Assembly (NCBI GenBank): GCA_049273945.1
Contig: JBASRS010000029.1
Location: 1,241 to 65,240 of the forward strand
Source of the DNA: Terriglobales bacterium
GTDB taxonomy: Bacteria; Acidobacteriota; Terriglobia; Terriglobales; Acidobacteriaceae
Length of the DNA: 64,000 nt
Direction: 5' to 3'
The position numbers and the translations under genes are program-made. The notes below the pieces were generated by a model. The model had not been told where the DNA came from, did no database searches, and was given only the letters and a program-made list of their open reading frames with translations. Positions 3,630 to 34,175 of the stretch are shown here, one piece after another (position 1 is the first letter of the stretch; the number at the start of each line of letters is the position of its first letter).

Positions 3630-3851
3630 GGTTGCGAGAACCTTCCTTCCCTCTGGTGCCGTTACGCCACCCGATCGAGCGCTGTGCCCATTTCAGGGCG
3701 AGATTACACCCCCGCATCTGACTCGCAAAGTTACGGAAGTCATGGAACGGAAGCAGCGAAGTGTCGGTGGTACAGGGACTTAGGGGCGATACGAAAGTGG
3801 CTGTGTTGGCCGTCACAGCGGGTTACTGGCCAGTGCAGTACATTCCCCAGT

Positions 3852-3886
3852 CAAGCATTCAGCGCTCAGCATTCAGCATTCAGTCT
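3852..3886. repeat. heptanucleotide array (CAAGCAT TCAGCGC TCAGCAT TCAGCAT TCAGTCT), left arm of the inverted pair around the four-helix-bundle gene
   Basis: Period 7 read directly. Nt 3854-3883 are complementary to 4312-4341 at 26 of 30 positions by hand alignment. Confidence 0.85.
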
Positions 3887-3926
3887 CTGAGAGGGTTTGG
3901 CATGGCGCTGGATAGGAGGCAGGATA

Positions 3927-4301
3927 ATGAAAGACTTCCGAGACTTGATCGTGTGGCAGAAAGCACACCAACTTACGTTAGCCGGCTATCGGGATACGGC
4001 GCGGTTTCCTAGAGAAGAGATCTACGGTCTGACCAGCCAGATTCGCAGGTGCTCCGCCTCAATAGCAGCAAACATTGCGGAGGGTTGCGGCAAGCGGGGC
4101 AACAATGAGTTCCAGCGCTTCCTGCACATCGCGACCGGATCCGCAAGCGAGCTTGAGTATCACTTCTTGCTCGCAAGGGACCTCGGCTTCCTCGCCGATG
4201 AAGCGTACCGGCACCTCGAGAGTTCGGTCACCGAGGTGAAGAAGATGCTGGCGGGACTCATCAAGAAGATCGAAGCGGACCGATTGAATGCGGAAGACTA
4301 A
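3927..4301 (+). CDS. four-helix-bundle protein (23S rRNA intervening-sequence protein / Avd-like family)
   Basis: MKDFRDLIVWQKAHQLTLAGYRDTARFPREEIYGLTSQIRRCSASIAANIAEGCGKRGNNEFQRFLHIATGSASELEYHFLLARDLGF... is the hallmark pattern of this family. The ORF-track start at 3897 is probably too early. Confidence 0.85.
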   Translation: MKDFRDLIVWQKAHQLTLAGYRDTARFPREEIYGLTSQIRRCSASIAANIAEGCGKRGNNEFQRFLHIATGSASELEYHFLLARDLGFLADEAYRHLESSVTEVKKMLAGLIKKIEADRLNAED

Positions 4302-4311
4302 ATGGCTCGTT

Positions 4312-4339
4312 CTGAATGCTGAGTGCTGACTGCTGACTG
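4312..4339. repeat. heptanucleotide array (CTGAATG CTGAGTG CTGACTG CTGACTG), right arm of the inverted pair; abuts the mrdA stop codon
   Basis: Period 7. It begins 10 nt after the TAA of the four-helix-bundle gene and ends at CTA 4340-4342 (TAG of mrdA). TGA occurs in all three frames (4313, 4320, 4327). Confidence 0.85.
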
Positions 4340-6301
4340 CTACCGTAGTCCCGGCGCCGCCACCGCCAGCGGAACCCTCTTCCGCGAAACATCCATTACA
4401 AACCGGCCACCGTGTAAATGATCTTCACCCTCGTCCCCATCGCCGGCATCCGTCCACAAGCCGCCGATCTCTACTTTCTTTGTCCCCGGCCCAGCCATCT
4501 TGGTAGGCGTCCGCCGCTGCTTGTCTACATACGCCTTGATGACCTGGGTCGCCAGCCGCGCCGCCAGCTTCCCGTGCTCGCCGCCTTCAAACAACACACA
4601 CACGATGATATCCGGATTGCGTCGCGGCGCGAATCCCACGAACCACCCGTTCTGCGCGAAATCTTCGTCGTTCTTATGCTTCGCGCGAAGTGCAAGCGAG
4701 ACGGTTTGCGCCGACCCGGTCTTGCCCGCAATGTCGATGCCGGGCACGTGCGCCGAGGGAGCTGTGCCCTCCGGCAGCACTACCCGCGCCAAGGCATTCG
4801 TGATCAGGTTCCATCCGTTCGAGTCGATGGGAATGTTCTTCACTTCCGTGTAGCGCAGAATCTCGACGTAGCCTTCCGGCAGGCCAGTCGGGTTGACCAC
4901 GTGCGGCACGACCAAGCGTCCGTCCATCGAGACCGCAGCCACCGCGCGCATCAACTGCACCGGCGTGATCGCGACCGCGCCCTGGCCGATGCCCACGGAA
5001 ATCGTTTCCCCGGCAAACCACTTCTGTTTGAAGTTGCGGATCTTCCACTCTTCCGAAGGCATCACGCCGCTCACTTCGTTCGGCAGATCAATCCCGGTCT
5101 TCTGCCCCAACCCCAGAGCGGTCGCGTATTTTGCGATGCGGTCGATGCCGAGTTTTTCCGCCAGCGTATAGAAGAAGACGTCGCAAGACTGATAGATCGC
5201 TTTCTCGATATCGACTGGTCCGTGACCGCTTTTCACCCAGCATCCGAATCGCCGGCCATAAAAAGTGGCGCCGCCATTGCAGTTCACATGGAGCGTCTGG
5301 GCAACGCCTTCCTGCCAGCCCGCGACCGACATGATGACTTTGAACGTCGAACCGGGCGCGAGTTGCGCCTGGATCGCTTTATTCAGCAGCGGCTTATCCG
5401 GATCGTTGATCAGCTTCGACCACTCTTCTTTCGAAATCTTCACCGCGAAGTGATTGGGATTGAACGTCGGCCGGCTCACCATCGCGAGAATTTCCCCAGT
5501 GCGCGGCTCCATGGCTACGATCGCGCCGTTCTTCCCCTCCAGCGCCTGTTCCGCCGCGATCTGCAAATCCAGATCCACCGACAGCTTCAACTGCTTGCCC
5601 GGTTCTGCCGGCGTCTCATCCAGTCGTCCCACCTCGCGGCCACGGCTGTCGACGATCGCGCGCCGCGACCCGTTCTTCCCCATCAAAAGGTTGTTGTATT
5701 GCTTCTCCACGCCGCTCACGCCGACTACGTCTCCGGGGCTGTAGAGCTCGAACTGCGGCTGGTTGAGCATGTCTTCGCTGACTTCGCCCACGTAGCCAAT
5801 CATGTGCGCCATGAACCCGTTGCGCGGATACAAACGACGGTGCGCCATGATGGTGTCGAGTTCCGGCAATTCGTTCTTGTGCGACTCGATGAACGCCAAC
5901 TCGTCGGGTGTGATGTCTTCCTTCAGAAAAATCGGCTGGTAGCGCGGCAAGGAAGCAAAGCGGCGCACGCGTTGGCGCACTTCTTCCGCAGTCAGATGCA
6001 GACCCTGCGCAATCAGGTCCGCGTCCGCGTTCAGGTCGCGCGACGAATCGCGCAACAGCAGCGCCGAGAACGACGGATAGTTGTCAACGATGACGCGCCC
6101 TTCGCGGTCCAGAATCTTTCCGCGCGGGGCAAGAATCGGCACGTTGCGGATGCGGTTCATCTCCGCCAGCAGCGCGTACTTGTCGCTCTGCATGACCTGA
6201 AGGCGCCACAACCCGTAGGCCAGCACCAGGAAAATAGCCAAGATGATGTACTGCACGGCGGTGAGCCGGATGGCGGAGACTTTTTCTTCGCGGCCGAACA
6301 T
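4340..6301 (-). CDS. mrdA: penicillin-binding protein 2 (elongation-specific transpeptidase)
   Basis: N-terminal TM anchor, then the motifs GSTFKV (SxxK), SCD (SxD/N) and KTGSAQ (KTG) in order. Size is about 650 aa. ATG at 6301 is preferred over TTG at 6304. Confidence 0.95.
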   Translation of the reverse strand: MFGREEKVSAIRLTAVQYIILAIFLVLAYGLWRLQVMQSDKYALLAEMNRIRNVPILAPRGKILDREGRVIVDNYPSFSALLLRDSSRDLNADADLIAQGLHLTAEEVRQRVRRFASLPRYQPIFLKEDITPDELAFIESHKNELPELDTIMAHRRLYPRNGFMAHMIGYVGEVSEDMLNQPQFELYSPGDVVGVSGVEKQYNNLLMGKNGSRRAIVDSRGREVGRLDETPAEPGKQLKLSVDLDLQIAAEQALEGKNGAIVAMEPRTGEILAMVSRPTFNPNHFAVKISKEEWSKLINDPDKPLLNKAIQAQLAPGSTFKVIMSVAGWQEGVAQTLHVNCNGGATFYGRRFGCWVKSGHGPVDIEKAIYQSCDVFFYTLAEKLGIDRIAKYATALGLGQKTGIDLPNEVSGVMPSEEWKIRNFKQKWFAGETISVGIGQGAVAITPVQLMRAVAAVSMDGRLVVPHVVNPTGLPEGYVEILRYTEVKNIPIDSNGWNLITNALARVVLPEGTAPSAHVPGIDIAGKTGSAQTVSLALRAKHKNDEDFAQNGWFVGFAPRRNPDIIVCVLFEGGEHGKLAARLATQVIKAYVDKQRRTPTKMAGPGTKKVEIGGLWTDAGDGDEGEDHLHGGRFVMDVSRKRVPLAVAAPGLR

Positions 6302-7295: not shown

Positions 7296-7820
7296 ATGAC
7301 CGATCCGCGCTACCCCATCGGCAAATTTTCTTTCGACGGACCCCTGACCGCAGAACAGAAACAGCAATACCTCAACGATATCGAGCAGACGCCCGCCCGC
7401 CTACGCGCCGCCGTCAGTGGGCTTTCCGATTCGCAGTTGAATACGCCCTACCGTGAAGGCGGTTGGACCGTGCGCCAACTCGCCCATCACGTTCCCGACA
7501 GCCACATGAATGCCTACATCCGCTTCAAGCTCGCCTTGACCGAGGATGACCCGACGATCAGACCTTACATGGAAGACCGCTGGGCCGAATTGCCGGAATC
7601 GAGGCAGGCTCCGATCGAGATCTCGCTCGCCCTGCTGGAGTCGCTGCACCGGCGCTGGATTATGGTTTTGCGAAATATCAAAGAGTCCGATTGGAAGCGC
7701 ACCTTCCGTCATCCTGACCTAGGCCCCATGACTCTGGAGAAAAACCTCGCCCTCTATGCCTGGCACGGACGCCATCACGTAGCGCATGTCACGACCTTGC
7801 GGGAGAAGATGGGATGGTAG
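7296..7820 (+). CDS. DinB/YfiT-family metal-dependent hydrolase (bacillithiol-transferase-like)
   Basis: MTDPRYPIGKFSFDGPLTAEQ...WTVRQLAHHVPDSHMNAYIRFK...LYAWHGRHHVAHV has the His triad spacing typical of YfiT. GGAGG at 7284-7288 precedes ATG 7296. Confidence 0.8.
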   Translation: MTDPRYPIGKFSFDGPLTAEQKQQYLNDIEQTPARLRAAVSGLSDSQLNTPYREGGWTVRQLAHHVPDSHMNAYIRFKLALTEDDPTIRPYMEDRWAELPESRQAPIEISLALLESLHRRWIMVLRNIKESDWKRTFRHPDLGPMTLEKNLALYAWHGRHHVAHVTTLREKMGW

Positions 7821-19838: not shown

Positions 19839-22220
19839 ATGTCCTCACCCATCCAGCCCGCATCGCCGGGTTCGAACCGCGTTCGAATCGTGGTCGCCAC
19901 CTCGGTGATGCTGACCTTCATCTCCTACTGGCGCGCCGCCGCCATCGTGCTCAACGACCTGGGGTCGTCCGCCTTTTATGCCTGCGGCATCGCCGAGCAG
20001 GCGGTCGGCAAGGCGGCGCCCTGGTTCATCGTCGGCGTCATGCTCTTCTCATTCACGGTGCGCGCGGTCTACGTGGAGAGCTGCTCGATGTTTGTTCGCG
20101 GCGGCGTCTACCGCGTCGTCAAAGAGGCGCTCGGCGGCACCCTGGCTAAGATCAGCGTCTCGGCCCTGATGTTCGATTACATTCTCACCGGGCCCATTTC
20201 GGGTGTGTCGGCCGGCCAGTACATCGCCGGGCTGATCAACGAAACCCTCGCCACGGCCGACGCTCACGGCTGGATCCCGGGCGCTGTCCACAACATTTTT
20301 CACGGTACGCCCCACTTCAACGTCAATTGGACTTCGGTGGTGTTTGCCCTGGCCGTCACCCTCTATTTCTGGTGGGAAAACATCAAGGGCATCCACGAGT
20401 CCAGCGAAAAAGCACTTCGCGTCATGCAGATCACTACCGTCATGGTGGTGATTCTCCTGGCGTGGTCCGCACTGACGCTGGCCAAGTCGGGATACCAGAA
20501 CGTTCCTCTGCCCACCCCCGAGAATCTCCATTTCAGCAAAGAATCGCTCGGCTTCCTGAGCCACAGCTTCCCCGAGCAGAGTCTGGCACGCATGTTCGGC
20601 GTGCTCGGCATTCTGATGGCCTTCGGCCACTCCGTTCTGGCCATGAGCGGGGAAGAATCGCTCGCCCAGGTCAATCGGGAACTGGCGCATCCCAAGTTGA
20701 AGAACCTGAAGCGCGCCGCGATCATCATCGCGATCTACAGCTTCGTCTTCACCGGCCTGACGGCGCTGCTTTTCGTGATGCTGATTCCGGACTCGGTCCG
20801 GGTTTCGGTCTACAAGGACAATCTCATCGCCGGCCTCGCCATGTATCTGTGGGGCCCGCCCATCCTGCGCCTGCTTTTCCGCGGATTTGTCGTGGTGGTC
20901 GGCTTCCTGATCCTCTCCGGCGCCGTCAACACCGCCATCATCGGCTCCAACGGAGTTCTGAACCGCGTTTCCGAAGACGGCGTTTTGGCCGACTGGTTCC
21001 GATTTCCCCATCGTAAGTACGGCACCAGCCACCGCATCATCAATCTGGTCGTCCTGCTCCAGATCTTTACCATTCTCGCCAGCCGCGGCGACGTTTACGT
21101 CCTCGGCGAAGCCTATGCCTTTGGCGTGATCTGGAGCTTTACCTTCAAAAGCCTCGCCATGCTGGTTCTGCGCTTCAAATACAAGGGAGAGCGCGGCTGG
21201 AAGGTTCCGGTGAATATCTCCATCGCCGGATACGAAATCCCCATCGGCCTGGCTTCGGTCTTCCTTGTTCTCTTTGCGACTGCTCTCATCAACTTGTTTA
21301 CTAAGTCCGTCGCGACCGTTGCCGGCGTCGCTTTCTCCATCATCTTCTTCGTGATCTTCACGGCGTCCGAACATTTGAACCGGAAAAAACACGCGCTCGT
21401 CCAGCAGCAGATGAATGATCAGTTCCAGCTCCTGCAGCGCGACACGGTGGAGCGGAGCGCTCTCAACATTCGCCCGGGCAATGTGCTGGTTCCGGTGCGC
21501 GACTACAACACGCTGAACCATCTCCGCTGGGCGCTGGAGAGGATCGACACCCGCGAACAGGACGTGGTGGTGATGTCCGCCCGCGTCAGCCGCTTTGGCG
21601 CCGCCGCCTACGATCTCTCCATGGAGCAGATCTTCAGCGATTACGAGCAGACCCTCTTCACCCGCGCCGTGGCGGTGGCCGAGGGCGTGGGGAAACACGT
21701 TTCTCTGCTGGTAGTTCCCGCCGGAGATGTCTGGTCGGCGATCGTGCAGACGGCCAACAACCTCGAGTCCTCGGCGGTGGTCGCGGGTCTATCCAGCAAG
21801 ATGACAACTGCGGAGCAGGCCTTTGCTATGGGCCACGCCTGGGAGGCTTTGCCCGAGCCCAAGCGGCAGTTCGTGCTGCAGATCGTTCGCCCGGACGGCC
21901 AAGTCGACTCTTTCCGTATCGGCCCCCACACTCCCACCATGAAGAATGAGGATGTCCTGCTGCTGCATCGCTTGTGGCTGAACATCACCCGCGAACCGGG
22001 CTTAGAGAATGTGCACCACCACGAAATCCTGACCGAAGCCCTCACCCGCTTCGCCCACGATTATGCCGCCCGCGACCGCGAGGACATCGTCAAGGAACTT
22101 CGCCGGATCACCGGCGAGGGCAGTACTTCCACACCGCGCCGCAGCGCTGGTCAGACCCGCCCCGTGCAGAAGGAGCCCACCCACCCCGGCCCCGATGACG
22201 GTCCGCCGGTGGGACCGTAG
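19839..22220 (+). CDS. APC-superfamily amino-acid/polyamine permease fused to a C-terminal universal-stress-protein-like domain
   Basis: About 12 TM helices over the first ~520 aa. A soluble domain follows (VLVPVRDYNTLNHLRWALERIDTREQDVVVMSARV...HVSLLVVPAGDVWSAIVQTANNLESSAVVAG) resembling USP/adenine-nucleotide alpha-hydrolase folds. Confidence 0.8.
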   Translation: MSSPIQPASPGSNRVRIVVATSVMLTFISYWRAAAIVLNDLGSSAFYACGIAEQAVGKAAPWFIVGVMLFSFTVRAVYVESCSMFVRGGVYRVVKEALGGTLAKISVSALMFDYILTGPISGVSAGQYIAGLINETLATADAHGWIPGAVHNIFHGTPHFNVNWTSVVFALAVTLYFWWENIKGIHESSEKALRVMQITTVMVVILLAWSALTLAKSGYQNVPLPTPENLHFSKESLGFLSHSFPEQSLARMFGVLGILMAFGHSVLAMSGEESLAQVNRELAHPKLKNLKRAAIIIAIYSFVFTGLTALLFVMLIPDSVRVSVYKDNLIAGLAMYLWGPPILRLLFRGFVVVVGFLILSGAVNTAIIGSNGVLNRVSEDGVLADWFRFPHRKYGTSHRIINLVVLLQIFTILASRGDVYVLGEAYAFGVIWSFTFKSLAMLVLRFKYKGERGWKVPVNISIAGYEIPIGLASVFLVLFATALINLFTKSVATVAGVAFSIIFFVIFTASEHLNRKKHALVQQQMNDQFQLLQRDTVERSALNIRPGNVLVPVRDYNTLNHLRWALERIDTREQDVVVMSARVSRFGAAAYDLSMEQIFSDYEQTLFTRAVAVAEGVGKHVSLLVVPAGDVWSAIVQTANNLESSAVVAGLSSKMTTAEQAFAMGHAWEALPEPKRQFVLQIVRPDGQVDSFRIGPHTPTMKNEDVLLLHRLWLNITREPGLENVHHHEILTEALTRFAHDYAARDREDIVKELRRITGEGSTSTPRRSAGQTRPVQKEPTHPGPDDGPPVGP

Positions 22221-26871: not shown

Positions 26872-27483
26872 ATGTCCATCGTCGTCATCGGCGGCCACTC
26901 CCGCAGCGTCGGCAAAACCAGCGTCGTCGCCGGCCTGATCTCTGCCCTGCCCGCCTTCCGCTGGACCGCCCTAAAAATCACCCAATACGGACACGGCATC
27001 TGCTCCGCCAACGGCGAAGCCTGCGACTGCGCCACCGCCGACCATGCCTGGGCCGCCTCCGAAGAAAAGAACCGCGACGGCACATCCGACACTTCCCGTT
27101 TCCTGGTCGCCGGCGCCGCGCACTCCTGGTGGGTCCGCACCGAGCAGGGACGCCTCGCCGAAGCCATGCCCCGCGTCCGCCAGATTCTGGCTGGAACACA
27201 AAACGCCATCATCGAATCGAACAGCGTGCTCCGTTTTCTAAAGCCCGACCTCTATCTGACCGTGCTCGACCCGCAGACCGCCGACTTCAAGACCTCTGCG
27301 CAAACTTTTCTCGACCGCGCCGACGCCGTCCTGCTCCACACTGCCGACAACGCCGAGATCCCCGCTTGGGAGCGCGTCTCACTGAAACCCGTGGCAGACC
27401 GCCCGATCTTCGCGTTCCACCCACCGCAATACGTCACACCCGAAGTAACAGACTTCGTCCGCCAACGCCTAAACAAGTCCTAA
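26872..27483 (+). CDS. hypothetical P-loop protein, MobB-like
   Basis: MSIVVIGGHSRSVGKTSVVAGLISAL (Walker-A-like GxxxxGKT/S) ...ALKITQYGH...SDTSRFLVAGAAHSWWV...AIIESNS has the layout of small MobB-type NTPases. Family assignment is tentative. Confidence 0.45.
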   Translation: MSIVVIGGHSRSVGKTSVVAGLISALPAFRWTALKITQYGHGICSANGEACDCATADHAWAASEEKNRDGTSDTSRFLVAGAAHSWWVRTEQGRLAEAMPRVRQILAGTQNAIIESNSVLRFLKPDLYLTVLDPQTADFKTSAQTFLDRADAVLLHTADNAEIPAWERVSLKPVADRPIFAFHPPQYVTPEVTDFVRQRLNKS

Positions 27484-32408: not shown

Positions 32409-34133
<1,725 letters not shown>

Positions 34134-34175
34134 GGACAGCGATTAGCACTTAGCATTTAGCTGTTAGCTTGAAAC
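34134..34175. repeat. heptanucleotide array (GGACAGC GATTAGC ACTTAGC ATTTAGC TGTTAGC TTGAAAC) abutting the groEL TAA
   Basis: Period 7. TAG occurs at 34144, 34151 and 34158, so it falls in all three frames. Confidence 0.85.

Follow-up and report, generated by a model that had tools for sequence, protein, structure and literature searches.

Three kinds of bacterial element bear on the locus described here, and each has been published separately: open reading frames (ORFs) carried by 23S rRNA intervening sequences (IVSs); PF05635 genes in cas loci and in rRNA insertions of the candidate phyla radiation; and heptamer arrays, including paired inverted arrays, in Xanthomonas, Nostoc, Beggiatoa, and Geobacter. 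The IVS of Coxiella burnetii has a 28-bp terminal stem and two to three tandem GACAGAT heptamers upstream of its S23p ORF, their copy number varying between strains; RNase III cuts at the start of the first heptamer repeat, and the ORF itself has been reported as decaying and untranslated (PMC4990558). Here we describe a gene of the PF05635 four-helix-bundle family (herein the 4HB gene) that lies, outside rRNA, in the loop of a long inverted repeat built of heptamer arrays. Together, arms and gene occupy positions 3854 through 4341 of a 64,000-nucleotide (nt) stretch of a Terriglobales genome (Acidobacteriota; contig JBASRS010000029.1, positions 1,241 through 65,240; herein the window, numbered from its own first letter). 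The window cassette is one copy of a widespread and apparently undescribed module, in which an RBS-bearing (ribosome-binding site) PF05635 gene is framed by two arrays of about four to five AGY-NNNN heptads, usually inverted. A search of the full-text literature, with subscription-only papers outside its reach, returned no link of PF05635 genes to flanking heptad arrays and no description of a non-rRNA cassette.

The 5′ arm (3854 through 3883, plus strand, within an array spanning 3852 through 3886) is made of tandem AGCATTC and AGCGCTC heptads, and the 3′ arm (4312 through 4341, plus strand) of the complementary CTGAATG, CTGAGTG, and CTGACTG. A repeat finder joins them as one inverted repeat (I1) of 30 nt per arm, complementary at 26 of 30 positions (87%) across an intervening 428 nt, and Tandem Repeats Finder (TRF) counts 4.3 copies of a period-7 unit in each arm. 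Arm positions 5, 11, 12, and 19 are mismatched, which leaves the 11 pairs nearest the loop unbroken; of these mismatches, those at positions 11 and 19 would be G·U pairs in the sense RNA. Within the loop, a 43-nt spacer (3884 through 3926, plus strand) carries GGAGG at 3915 through 3919, 7 nt before the ATG at 3927, and is followed by a 124-codon ORF on the plus strand (3927 through 4301) with its stop codon at 4299 through 4301. The last codons of the gene (4285 through 4304, plus strand) have the degenerate-heptad-like sequence TGAATGCGGAAGAC, detected as inverted repeats I3 and I5; in relatives the ORF terminates within the array (...AEC*), and L099, L098, L009, and L013 end in GCTGAATGCTGA. 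On its outer side, the 3′ arm shares 2 nt with the stop codon of mrdA, which is convergent with the 4HB gene (4340 through 6304, minus strand), and the 5′ arm is kept in the related loci L094 through L099. The original prediction of a 30-nt stem with 26 paired positions, closing a gene-sized loop, is confirmed by both the repeat finder and direct reading of the sequence. When the segment 3845 through 4350 was folded, the terminal stem was present in the minimum free energy and centroid structures alike; the z-score of the whole cassette is only −1.5, a value that is uninformative because the 428-nt coding loop dominates the energy.

The window is rich in heptad arrays (six strong period-7 arrays observed against 0.05 expected, and four hairpins), which lends some plausibility to an ordinary explanation: common heptamer microsatellites that face each other by chance, or standard terminator or promoter elements. 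Flanks were scored by comparing the 150 nt on each side of a gene for their best inverted repeat without gaps, with 13 or more taken as strong. The cassette scores 18, a value reached in none of 1000 dinucleotide shuffles (mean 7.5, maximum 13) and in none of 1962 placements of the same geometry elsewhere in the window (maximum 14). The arms lie 428 nt apart with no T-run after them, and a scan for promoters and terminators detected neither a sigma-70-like promoter for the 4HB gene nor a T-tailed terminator at the arms. As described below, the arrangement also recurs in several phyla with different heptamers, and scores of 13 or more are absent from 800 control intervals. The controls effectively refute coincidence, to which we give very little probability; the heptad-framed 4HB gene is real and beyond chance.

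The 124-residue product belongs to the family annotated as 23S rRNA intervening-sequence protein and is a distant relative of Avd, the accessory protein of diversity-generating retroelements (DGRs). It matches the PF05635 profile at 130.2 bits (cutoff 33.8), the TIGR02436 "four helix bundle protein" profile at 130.1 bits (cutoff 24), and NF008911 at 141 bits (cutoff 137); the family is large, with 22,901 clusters at 50% identity (E up to 1e-3). By sequence comparison alone, it matches Protein Data Bank entries 2GSC (Xanthomonas XCC0516, E = 3e-17) and 2RLD, each with five chains, and XCC0516 has been described as a homopentamer. An alignment of 14 sequences from several phyla (A3) has Q38, R41, S45, N49, and E52 invariant; the last four of these make up the helix motif R-x3-S-x3-N-x2-E reported for the family (PMC3936711). 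The ratio of nonsynonymous to synonymous divergence (dN/dS) is 0.03 to 0.17 in pairs with unsaturated synonymous sites, and 0.04 to 0.06 against the nearest relatives. The 4HB gene is under purifying selection, and its protein is therefore functional. In one relative (L010, 3001 through 3360), codon 29 is followed by an in-frame stop, yet the alignment extends over residues 1 through 120; this ORF is either a pseudogene or an assembly error.

Weak hidden Markov model matches to bAvd and DGR Avd models, and an Avd family as the sole match in PHROGs, raise the idea that the gene is an orphan left behind by a retroelement. The fold is indeed homologous to that of Avd; the scores, in contrast, are far below cutoff (NF033474, 26.4 bits against 80; PF22296, 26.7 bits against 40), and there is no nearby reverse transcriptase, no template/variable repeat pair, and no long direct repeat. 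The gene is bordered instead by PBP2 (mrdA) on one flank and, on the opposite flank, by a PilZ-domain gene and a LuxR-type response regulator, and the locus is syntenic across many genomes that have no DGR. We give a DGR remnant virtually no credence, and heptad arms have not, to our knowledge, been reported around Avd genes. PADLOC matched no defense-system model, and the 64-kb window holds no other PF05635-family gene.

The original prediction had called for a test of whether other copies of the family are flanked by inverted heptad arrays, and relatives do carry them. The main sample comprised 80 loci from species-representative genomes, the best matches to one query, with relatives at 51 to 77% identity; it covers Acidobacteriota, Chloroflexota, Poribacteria, Bacteroidota, Deltaproteobacteria, and others, includes many metagenome-assembled genomes, and relies on gene calls made with simple ORF logic. 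Flank scores of 13 or more were found at 66% of the 80 loci and at none of 800 same-size random intervals drawn from those loci. The arm units are specific to lineages (AGCATTC, AGCACTT, AGCAGTT, AGCTTCT, AGCTATC, AAGTTAT, and GGTTGTC among them); since the two arms match within each locus while the units differ by lineage, complementarity has been kept through sequence change. On inspection, most of the loci scored as negative still have heptad arrays, a few of them in direct orientation. Two independent samples follow the same pattern: on plasmids, 8 of 12 cyanobacterial and Azospirillum copies have flanking inverted heptads, the cyanobacterial ones of STRR type (ACAGGTG, AGGGAAC, AAGGGAA, AGGAGAT, and GCAGAGG), and about 20 of 30 IMG/VR copies, at 35 to 60% identity, have inverted heptads of yet other sequences. 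The IMG/VR relatives were found by profile search; a single-sequence scan of viral contigs had returned none. The same packaging is found around relatives in at least seven bacterial phyla.

The geometry of the arms is narrowly defined. In related loci the arms have a median length of 25 nt and the arrays a median size of 4.3 to 4.6 units; among 59 loci, the median distance from the end of the 5′ arm to the start codon is 30 nt and that from the stop codon to the beginning of the 3′ arm is 1 nt, with the stop codon overlapped by the 3′ arm in 27. Stops in all three frames occur in 33 of 58 3′ arms and 17 of 58 5′ arms, compared with 1 of 58 after shuffling; given the symmetry, all frames are closed by the distal arm no matter which strand is read. 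Cassettes are found within pairs of co-oriented genes (tldD-pmbA, cas6-cas4, and cas10-cmr3), a setting that is frequent on the cyanobacterial plasmids. A count of co-orientation with both neighbors (44 of 66 loci) is not relied on: the PilZ-side neighbor was misassigned by the crude ORF calls, the loci are not independent, and the value is near the bacterial background rate. On the cyanobacterial plasmids L081, L084, and L085, a family gene separates cas6 from cas4 or cas10 from cmr3 and shares their orientation; the copy in L081 has direct arrays, (AAAGCTA)n of about 15 units upstream and (AAAGCCA)n downstream. Two IMG/VR loci (L107 and L108, 2501 through 2845) have the four-helix-bundle region in frame inside an ORF of at least 1159 residues with an NPPY methyltransferase motif; heptad arms are absent, and the family domain seems to occur here as part of a fusion protein.

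The connection to rRNA comes from one of these plasmid copies. In Azospirillum lipoferum (L087), the family ORF is embedded in a gene for large-subunit rRNA (Rfam RF02541, 490 bits), at the position of the helix-45 IVS, and is enclosed by 30-nt inverted heptad arms consisting of TCAGAGGACGGATGACAGAGGACGGAGGAC and its complement. A family ORF with heptad arms is thus present in a true IVS, which makes the window module an IVS module located outside rRNA. The ORF-containing rRNA IVSs (those of Leptospira, Coxiella, and Xanthomonas type, and L087) share with the window cassette the same protein family in the loop and terminal inverted repeats of about 28 to 30 nt made of tandem heptamers, with the gene as the loop of a long stem. 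Unlike them, the window copy lies between PilZ and mrdA and combines a strong in-loop RBS with purifying selection; RNase III cleavage has been shown only for the rRNA copies. Rfam searches agree with this placement: the region 3500 through 4450 has no match (E up to 1), and the single match in the whole window is a tRNA, so the cassette is not within a 23S rRNA helix.

We compared several readings, of which we favor, with a probability of roughly 0.6, the one in which an IVS-type cassette sits outside rRNA and its arms, most likely, form a stem cleavable by RNase III. The original prediction had suggested such a cassette, and the true 23S IVS of L087, together with the heptamers and stem of the Coxiella IVS, backs it. 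In any transcript that crosses the cassette, the arms would pair into a duplex of about 25 to 30 bp that closes the gene as a loop. The duplex would probably be a substrate for RNase III, as in rRNA IVSs, and cleavage would excise the cassette from the host transcript or insulate it, letting the gene sit harmlessly in operons, rRNA helices, and gene ends. A duplex of the size that suits RNase III would explain why the module tolerates rRNA helices, operons, and positions directly abutting stop codons. As DNA, the arms would act as recombination substrates, through which arms and gene could be inverted, exchanged, and relocated as one unit, with arms-only hairpins remaining at gene ends. What we infer is the pairing of the RNA in vivo, cleavage by RNase III at sites other than rRNA, and whatever role the protein has; support for the RNA step is indirect and consists of the rRNA precedents, the length and placement of the arms, and a weak excess of G·U pairs.

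Several observations weigh against this reading. About 28 of the 80 loci are at orthologous positions, so the percentages given above are not independent counts. A minority of relatives (L064, L070, L081, and L088) have direct or one-sided arrays from which no stem is possible; what generally accompanies the gene is therefore heptad arrays, of which the stem is the common but not an obligatory form. Mismatches in the sense strand are G·U in 54 cases and A·C in 34 (p = 0.04, from non-independent loci), a weak bias. In the window, the 4HB gene is antisense to both neighbors, and with no promoter detected, hitchhiking on read-through transcription fails to explain its expression here. The close homologs (88 to 91% identity) are all at the same locus, and movement is therefore rare, yet real. 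Lastly, RNase III cleavage outside rRNA would be an extrapolation from the rRNA copies.

Comparison with related Terriglobales reveals how the cassette has evolved. L014, among the closest genomes, is collinear with the window from 1655 through 7229, and relative to it the segment 3823 through 4341 is an island of divergence: DNA identity is 35 to 60% between the arms and 83 to 88% in all flanking genes. The cassette of L014 is a strongly diverged allele, exchanged with breakpoints at the arms. The proportion of synonymous differences (pS) for the 4HB gene is 0.85 and its dN 0.28, compared with dS of 0.49 to 0.58 and dN of 0.02 to 0.08 for the flanking genes; L094 and L099, as distant as L014, carry the window's allele (dN 0.05). 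The arm heptamer tracks the class of the gene, AGCAYTC with class 1 and AGCAYTT with class 2, and the arrays themselves are hypervariable, both between the window and L014 and among L094 through L099. The 4HB protein tree is incongruent with the host tree, so that, for example, the neighboring hosts L002 and L024 carry different classes. These are neighbor-joining trees of short proteins; the class distinction is nevertheless sound because it rests on saturated synonymous divergence and not on topology.

The ancestral gene order in these genomes is tldD-pmbA-PilZ-LuxR-bfr, and the cassette is found at two sites: site A, which is bounded by pmbA and by a conserved block that lies upstream of PilZ, and site B, between tldD and pmbA. 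The window cassette is at site A, with mrdA replacing pmbA in its clade, and the two sites are interleaved in the host tree. In L003, the site-A cassette is inverted in place with its neighbors unchanged. Arrays are present in related genomes with the gene at this locus, and the empty hairpin that had been sought at the orthologous site exists as well: three of the site-B genomes (L009, L015, and L055) have at site A a heptad hairpin without a gene, in contact with the stop codon of pmbA, and the remaining ones have nothing at that site. In L015 and L055, the heptamer of the empty hairpin is unlike that of the resident cassette's arms. A candidate gene remnant in the empty-hairpin loops of these three genomes was rejected, since the match to "GGGCTAAATGCT" is explained by the heptad unit and is no evidence of deletion. 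Events could have run in either direction, with the gene inserted into a hairpin that was already there or with the gene-less hairpins being derivatives that kept only the arms. With the exchange at the arms, the inversion in place, and the two sites, the mobility that had been suggested for the module is supported on an evolutionary scale, and arms and gene behave as one evolutionary unit.

The same three observations (swap breakpoints at the arms, inversion in place, and two alternative sites) could also be read at the level of DNA alone, with the arms as recombination or cruciform sites for an integron-like exchange of cassettes and no RNA role. No recombinase is linked to the cassette, however; the same arms in rRNA are demonstrably RNA-processing sites, and the narrow limits within which they are placed, about 30 nt ahead of the start codon and at the stop codon, suggest that constraints act on the transcript. 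We consider this explanation improbable. Group I and group II intron ORFs and integron cassettes resemble the module in having a gene within a structured or inverted-repeat element in host transcripts and in exchange at fixed sites, and differ from it in that the cassette has no ribozyme, homing endonuclease, maturase, integrase, or attC signature.

Compound arrangements are seen in three related genomes (L002, 2830 through 3000; L006, 4780 through 5110; and the flanks of L023), with a gene-less hairpin just upstream of or beside a gene-bearing one and arrays back to back; this suggests that arrays duplicate or rearrange locally. Between PilZ (3273 through 3629) and the cassette lies a noncoding block of about 190 nt (3630 through 3822, minus strand, upstream of PilZ) that is conserved in at least seven genomes and 83% identical to L014, with invariant stretches such as CATTTCAGG..GAGATTACA and GTACAGGGACTTAGGGG. 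The block has no Rfam match and no sigma-70-like promoter, and may be a 5′ untranslated RNA element or a regulatory region.

Four gene-less heptad hairpins had been noted in the window, and all four exist, with fold z-scores of −2.7 to −5.1. The first (7827 through 7930; AGCTACG, AGCCGCG, and AGCTTCG) lies between convergent genes whose ORFs end at 7820 and 7931 and has a folding energy of −61.8 kcal/mol (z = −5.1). The second (14788 through 14873, AGTAGCG type, z = −4.0) and third (17954 through 18013, AGTAGCC type, z = −3.9) are likewise between convergent ORFs, as is the fourth (22217 through 22278, AGTTCGT type, z = −2.7), where the stops are at 22220 and 22275. All four touch or nearly touch both convergent stops, none has a T-tail, and they may serve as bidirectional 3′-end hairpins.

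A gene flanked by the kind of repeat that is also dispersed, gene-less, in the same genome recalls REP elements and their RAYT proteins, and suggests a further explanation. Here, the 4HB pentamer would be a putative trans-acting binder of heptad arrays in RNA or DNA, comparable to RAYT or TRAP, with about one subunit per AGY-NNNN unit; the gene-bearing hairpin would be the autonomous copy, and gene-less arrays and hairpins its dependants or targets, in regulation, 3′-end formation, or their own spread. The median of 4.3 to 4.6 units per array sits well with the five chains per entry of the solved relatives and the described XCC0516 homopentamer, the association with arrays persists where direct orientation precludes a stem, and the protein is under purifying selection. 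Avd, to which the 4HB protein is related, belongs to a nucleic-acid-handling complex, and several papers state that the binding partner of heptamer repeats is unknown. Set against this, the gene-less heptamers of the window (AGCTACG, AGTAGCG, and AGTTCGT) are unlike the cassette arms (AGCATTC), and the mismatch between empty hairpins and resident arms in L015 and L055 is of the same kind. As the heptamers differ between cassette and gene-less arrays, one sequence-specific protein cannot serve all of them, and we regard a partner role of this sort as possible, if unlikely. The comparison with REP elements, including REPINs, has its own limits: the single gene between inverted short repeats and the gene-less intergenic hairpins are alike, while the PF05635 protein is a small helical bundle without a transposase domain, not an HUH (Y1) transposase, and its repeats are tandem heptads that differ from site to site in place of one conserved palindrome.

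The broadest form of the partner model, which we hold to be less likely again, would make PF05635 proteins the putative missing partner of heptamer repeats in general (STRR, the Xanthomonas GGGAATC repeats, the Geobacter sites, and the acidobacterial arrays). A ring reading about five AGY-NNNN units, with autonomous and non-autonomous copies, would then constitute a self-maintaining system that shapes 3′ ends and operon spacers in many phyla, and would be the source of ORF-containing rRNA IVSs. The heptanucleotide repeats in question (STRR, Xanthomonas GGGAATC, Beggiatoa TAACTGA, and the "global regulator sites" that occur in pairs in Geobacter metallireducens) are similar to those described here in being intergenic arrays of two to six or more heptamers, often in convergent, hairpin-forming pairs and of strain-variable length; the papers on them, in contrast, make no connection to PF05635. 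The arrays around the 4HB gene family have the features that define STRR-like repeats: intergenic tandem 7-nt units, in few to several copies, variable between relatives. In the supplementary table of the Xanthomonas GGGAATC paper, a four-heptamer array overlaps the annotated start of XCC0516, the family member solved by crystallography, without comment (PMC4692102); we count this array among the evidence for identity with the rRNA IVS.

Other repeats in the window are of varied form. Two single-arm arrays, at 1858 through 1889 and 26834 through 26868, share a near-identical 27-mer, AACTGAGAACTGGGAACCGAGAACTGA. L001 and L002 retain the first in their orthologous tRNA-bfr spacer; the second overlaps the preceding ORF at its stop and ends 3 nt ahead of the ATG at 26872, resembling the TAACTGA arrays located just upstream of start codons in Beggiatoa (PMC4679880). 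Arrays of the same orientation at 34142 through 34170 (TTAGCAC type, directly after a groEL-like ORF ending at 34133) and 35219 through 35254 (AGCTACG type) flank an unannotated minus-strand ORF of 258 residues (34254 through 35030). Two tandem-repeat blocks (57491 through 57631 and 58121 through 58273), with units of 42 and 51 nt, are near-identical and about 630 nt apart (TRF scores of 114 to 133).

Under the favored reading, that of an IVS-type cassette placed outside rRNA, three old puzzles converge on one module: the purpose of the ORFs in rRNA IVSs, the role of heptamer repeats (abundant in cyanobacteria, Xanthomonas, Geobacter, and other bacteria), and the function of PF05635 proteins outside retroelements. 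The presence of cassettes inside cas and other operons calls for caution before such genes are read as functional members there. If the architecture is family-wide, rRNA IVSs would be a special case of a general, loop-dwelling gene cassette, with gene-less heptad hairpins as possible derivatives that retain only the arms. The RNase III model and the model in which the protein binds heptads would then both be directly testable in Nostoc PCC 7120, in Xanthomonas campestris (XCC0516), and in Geobacter.

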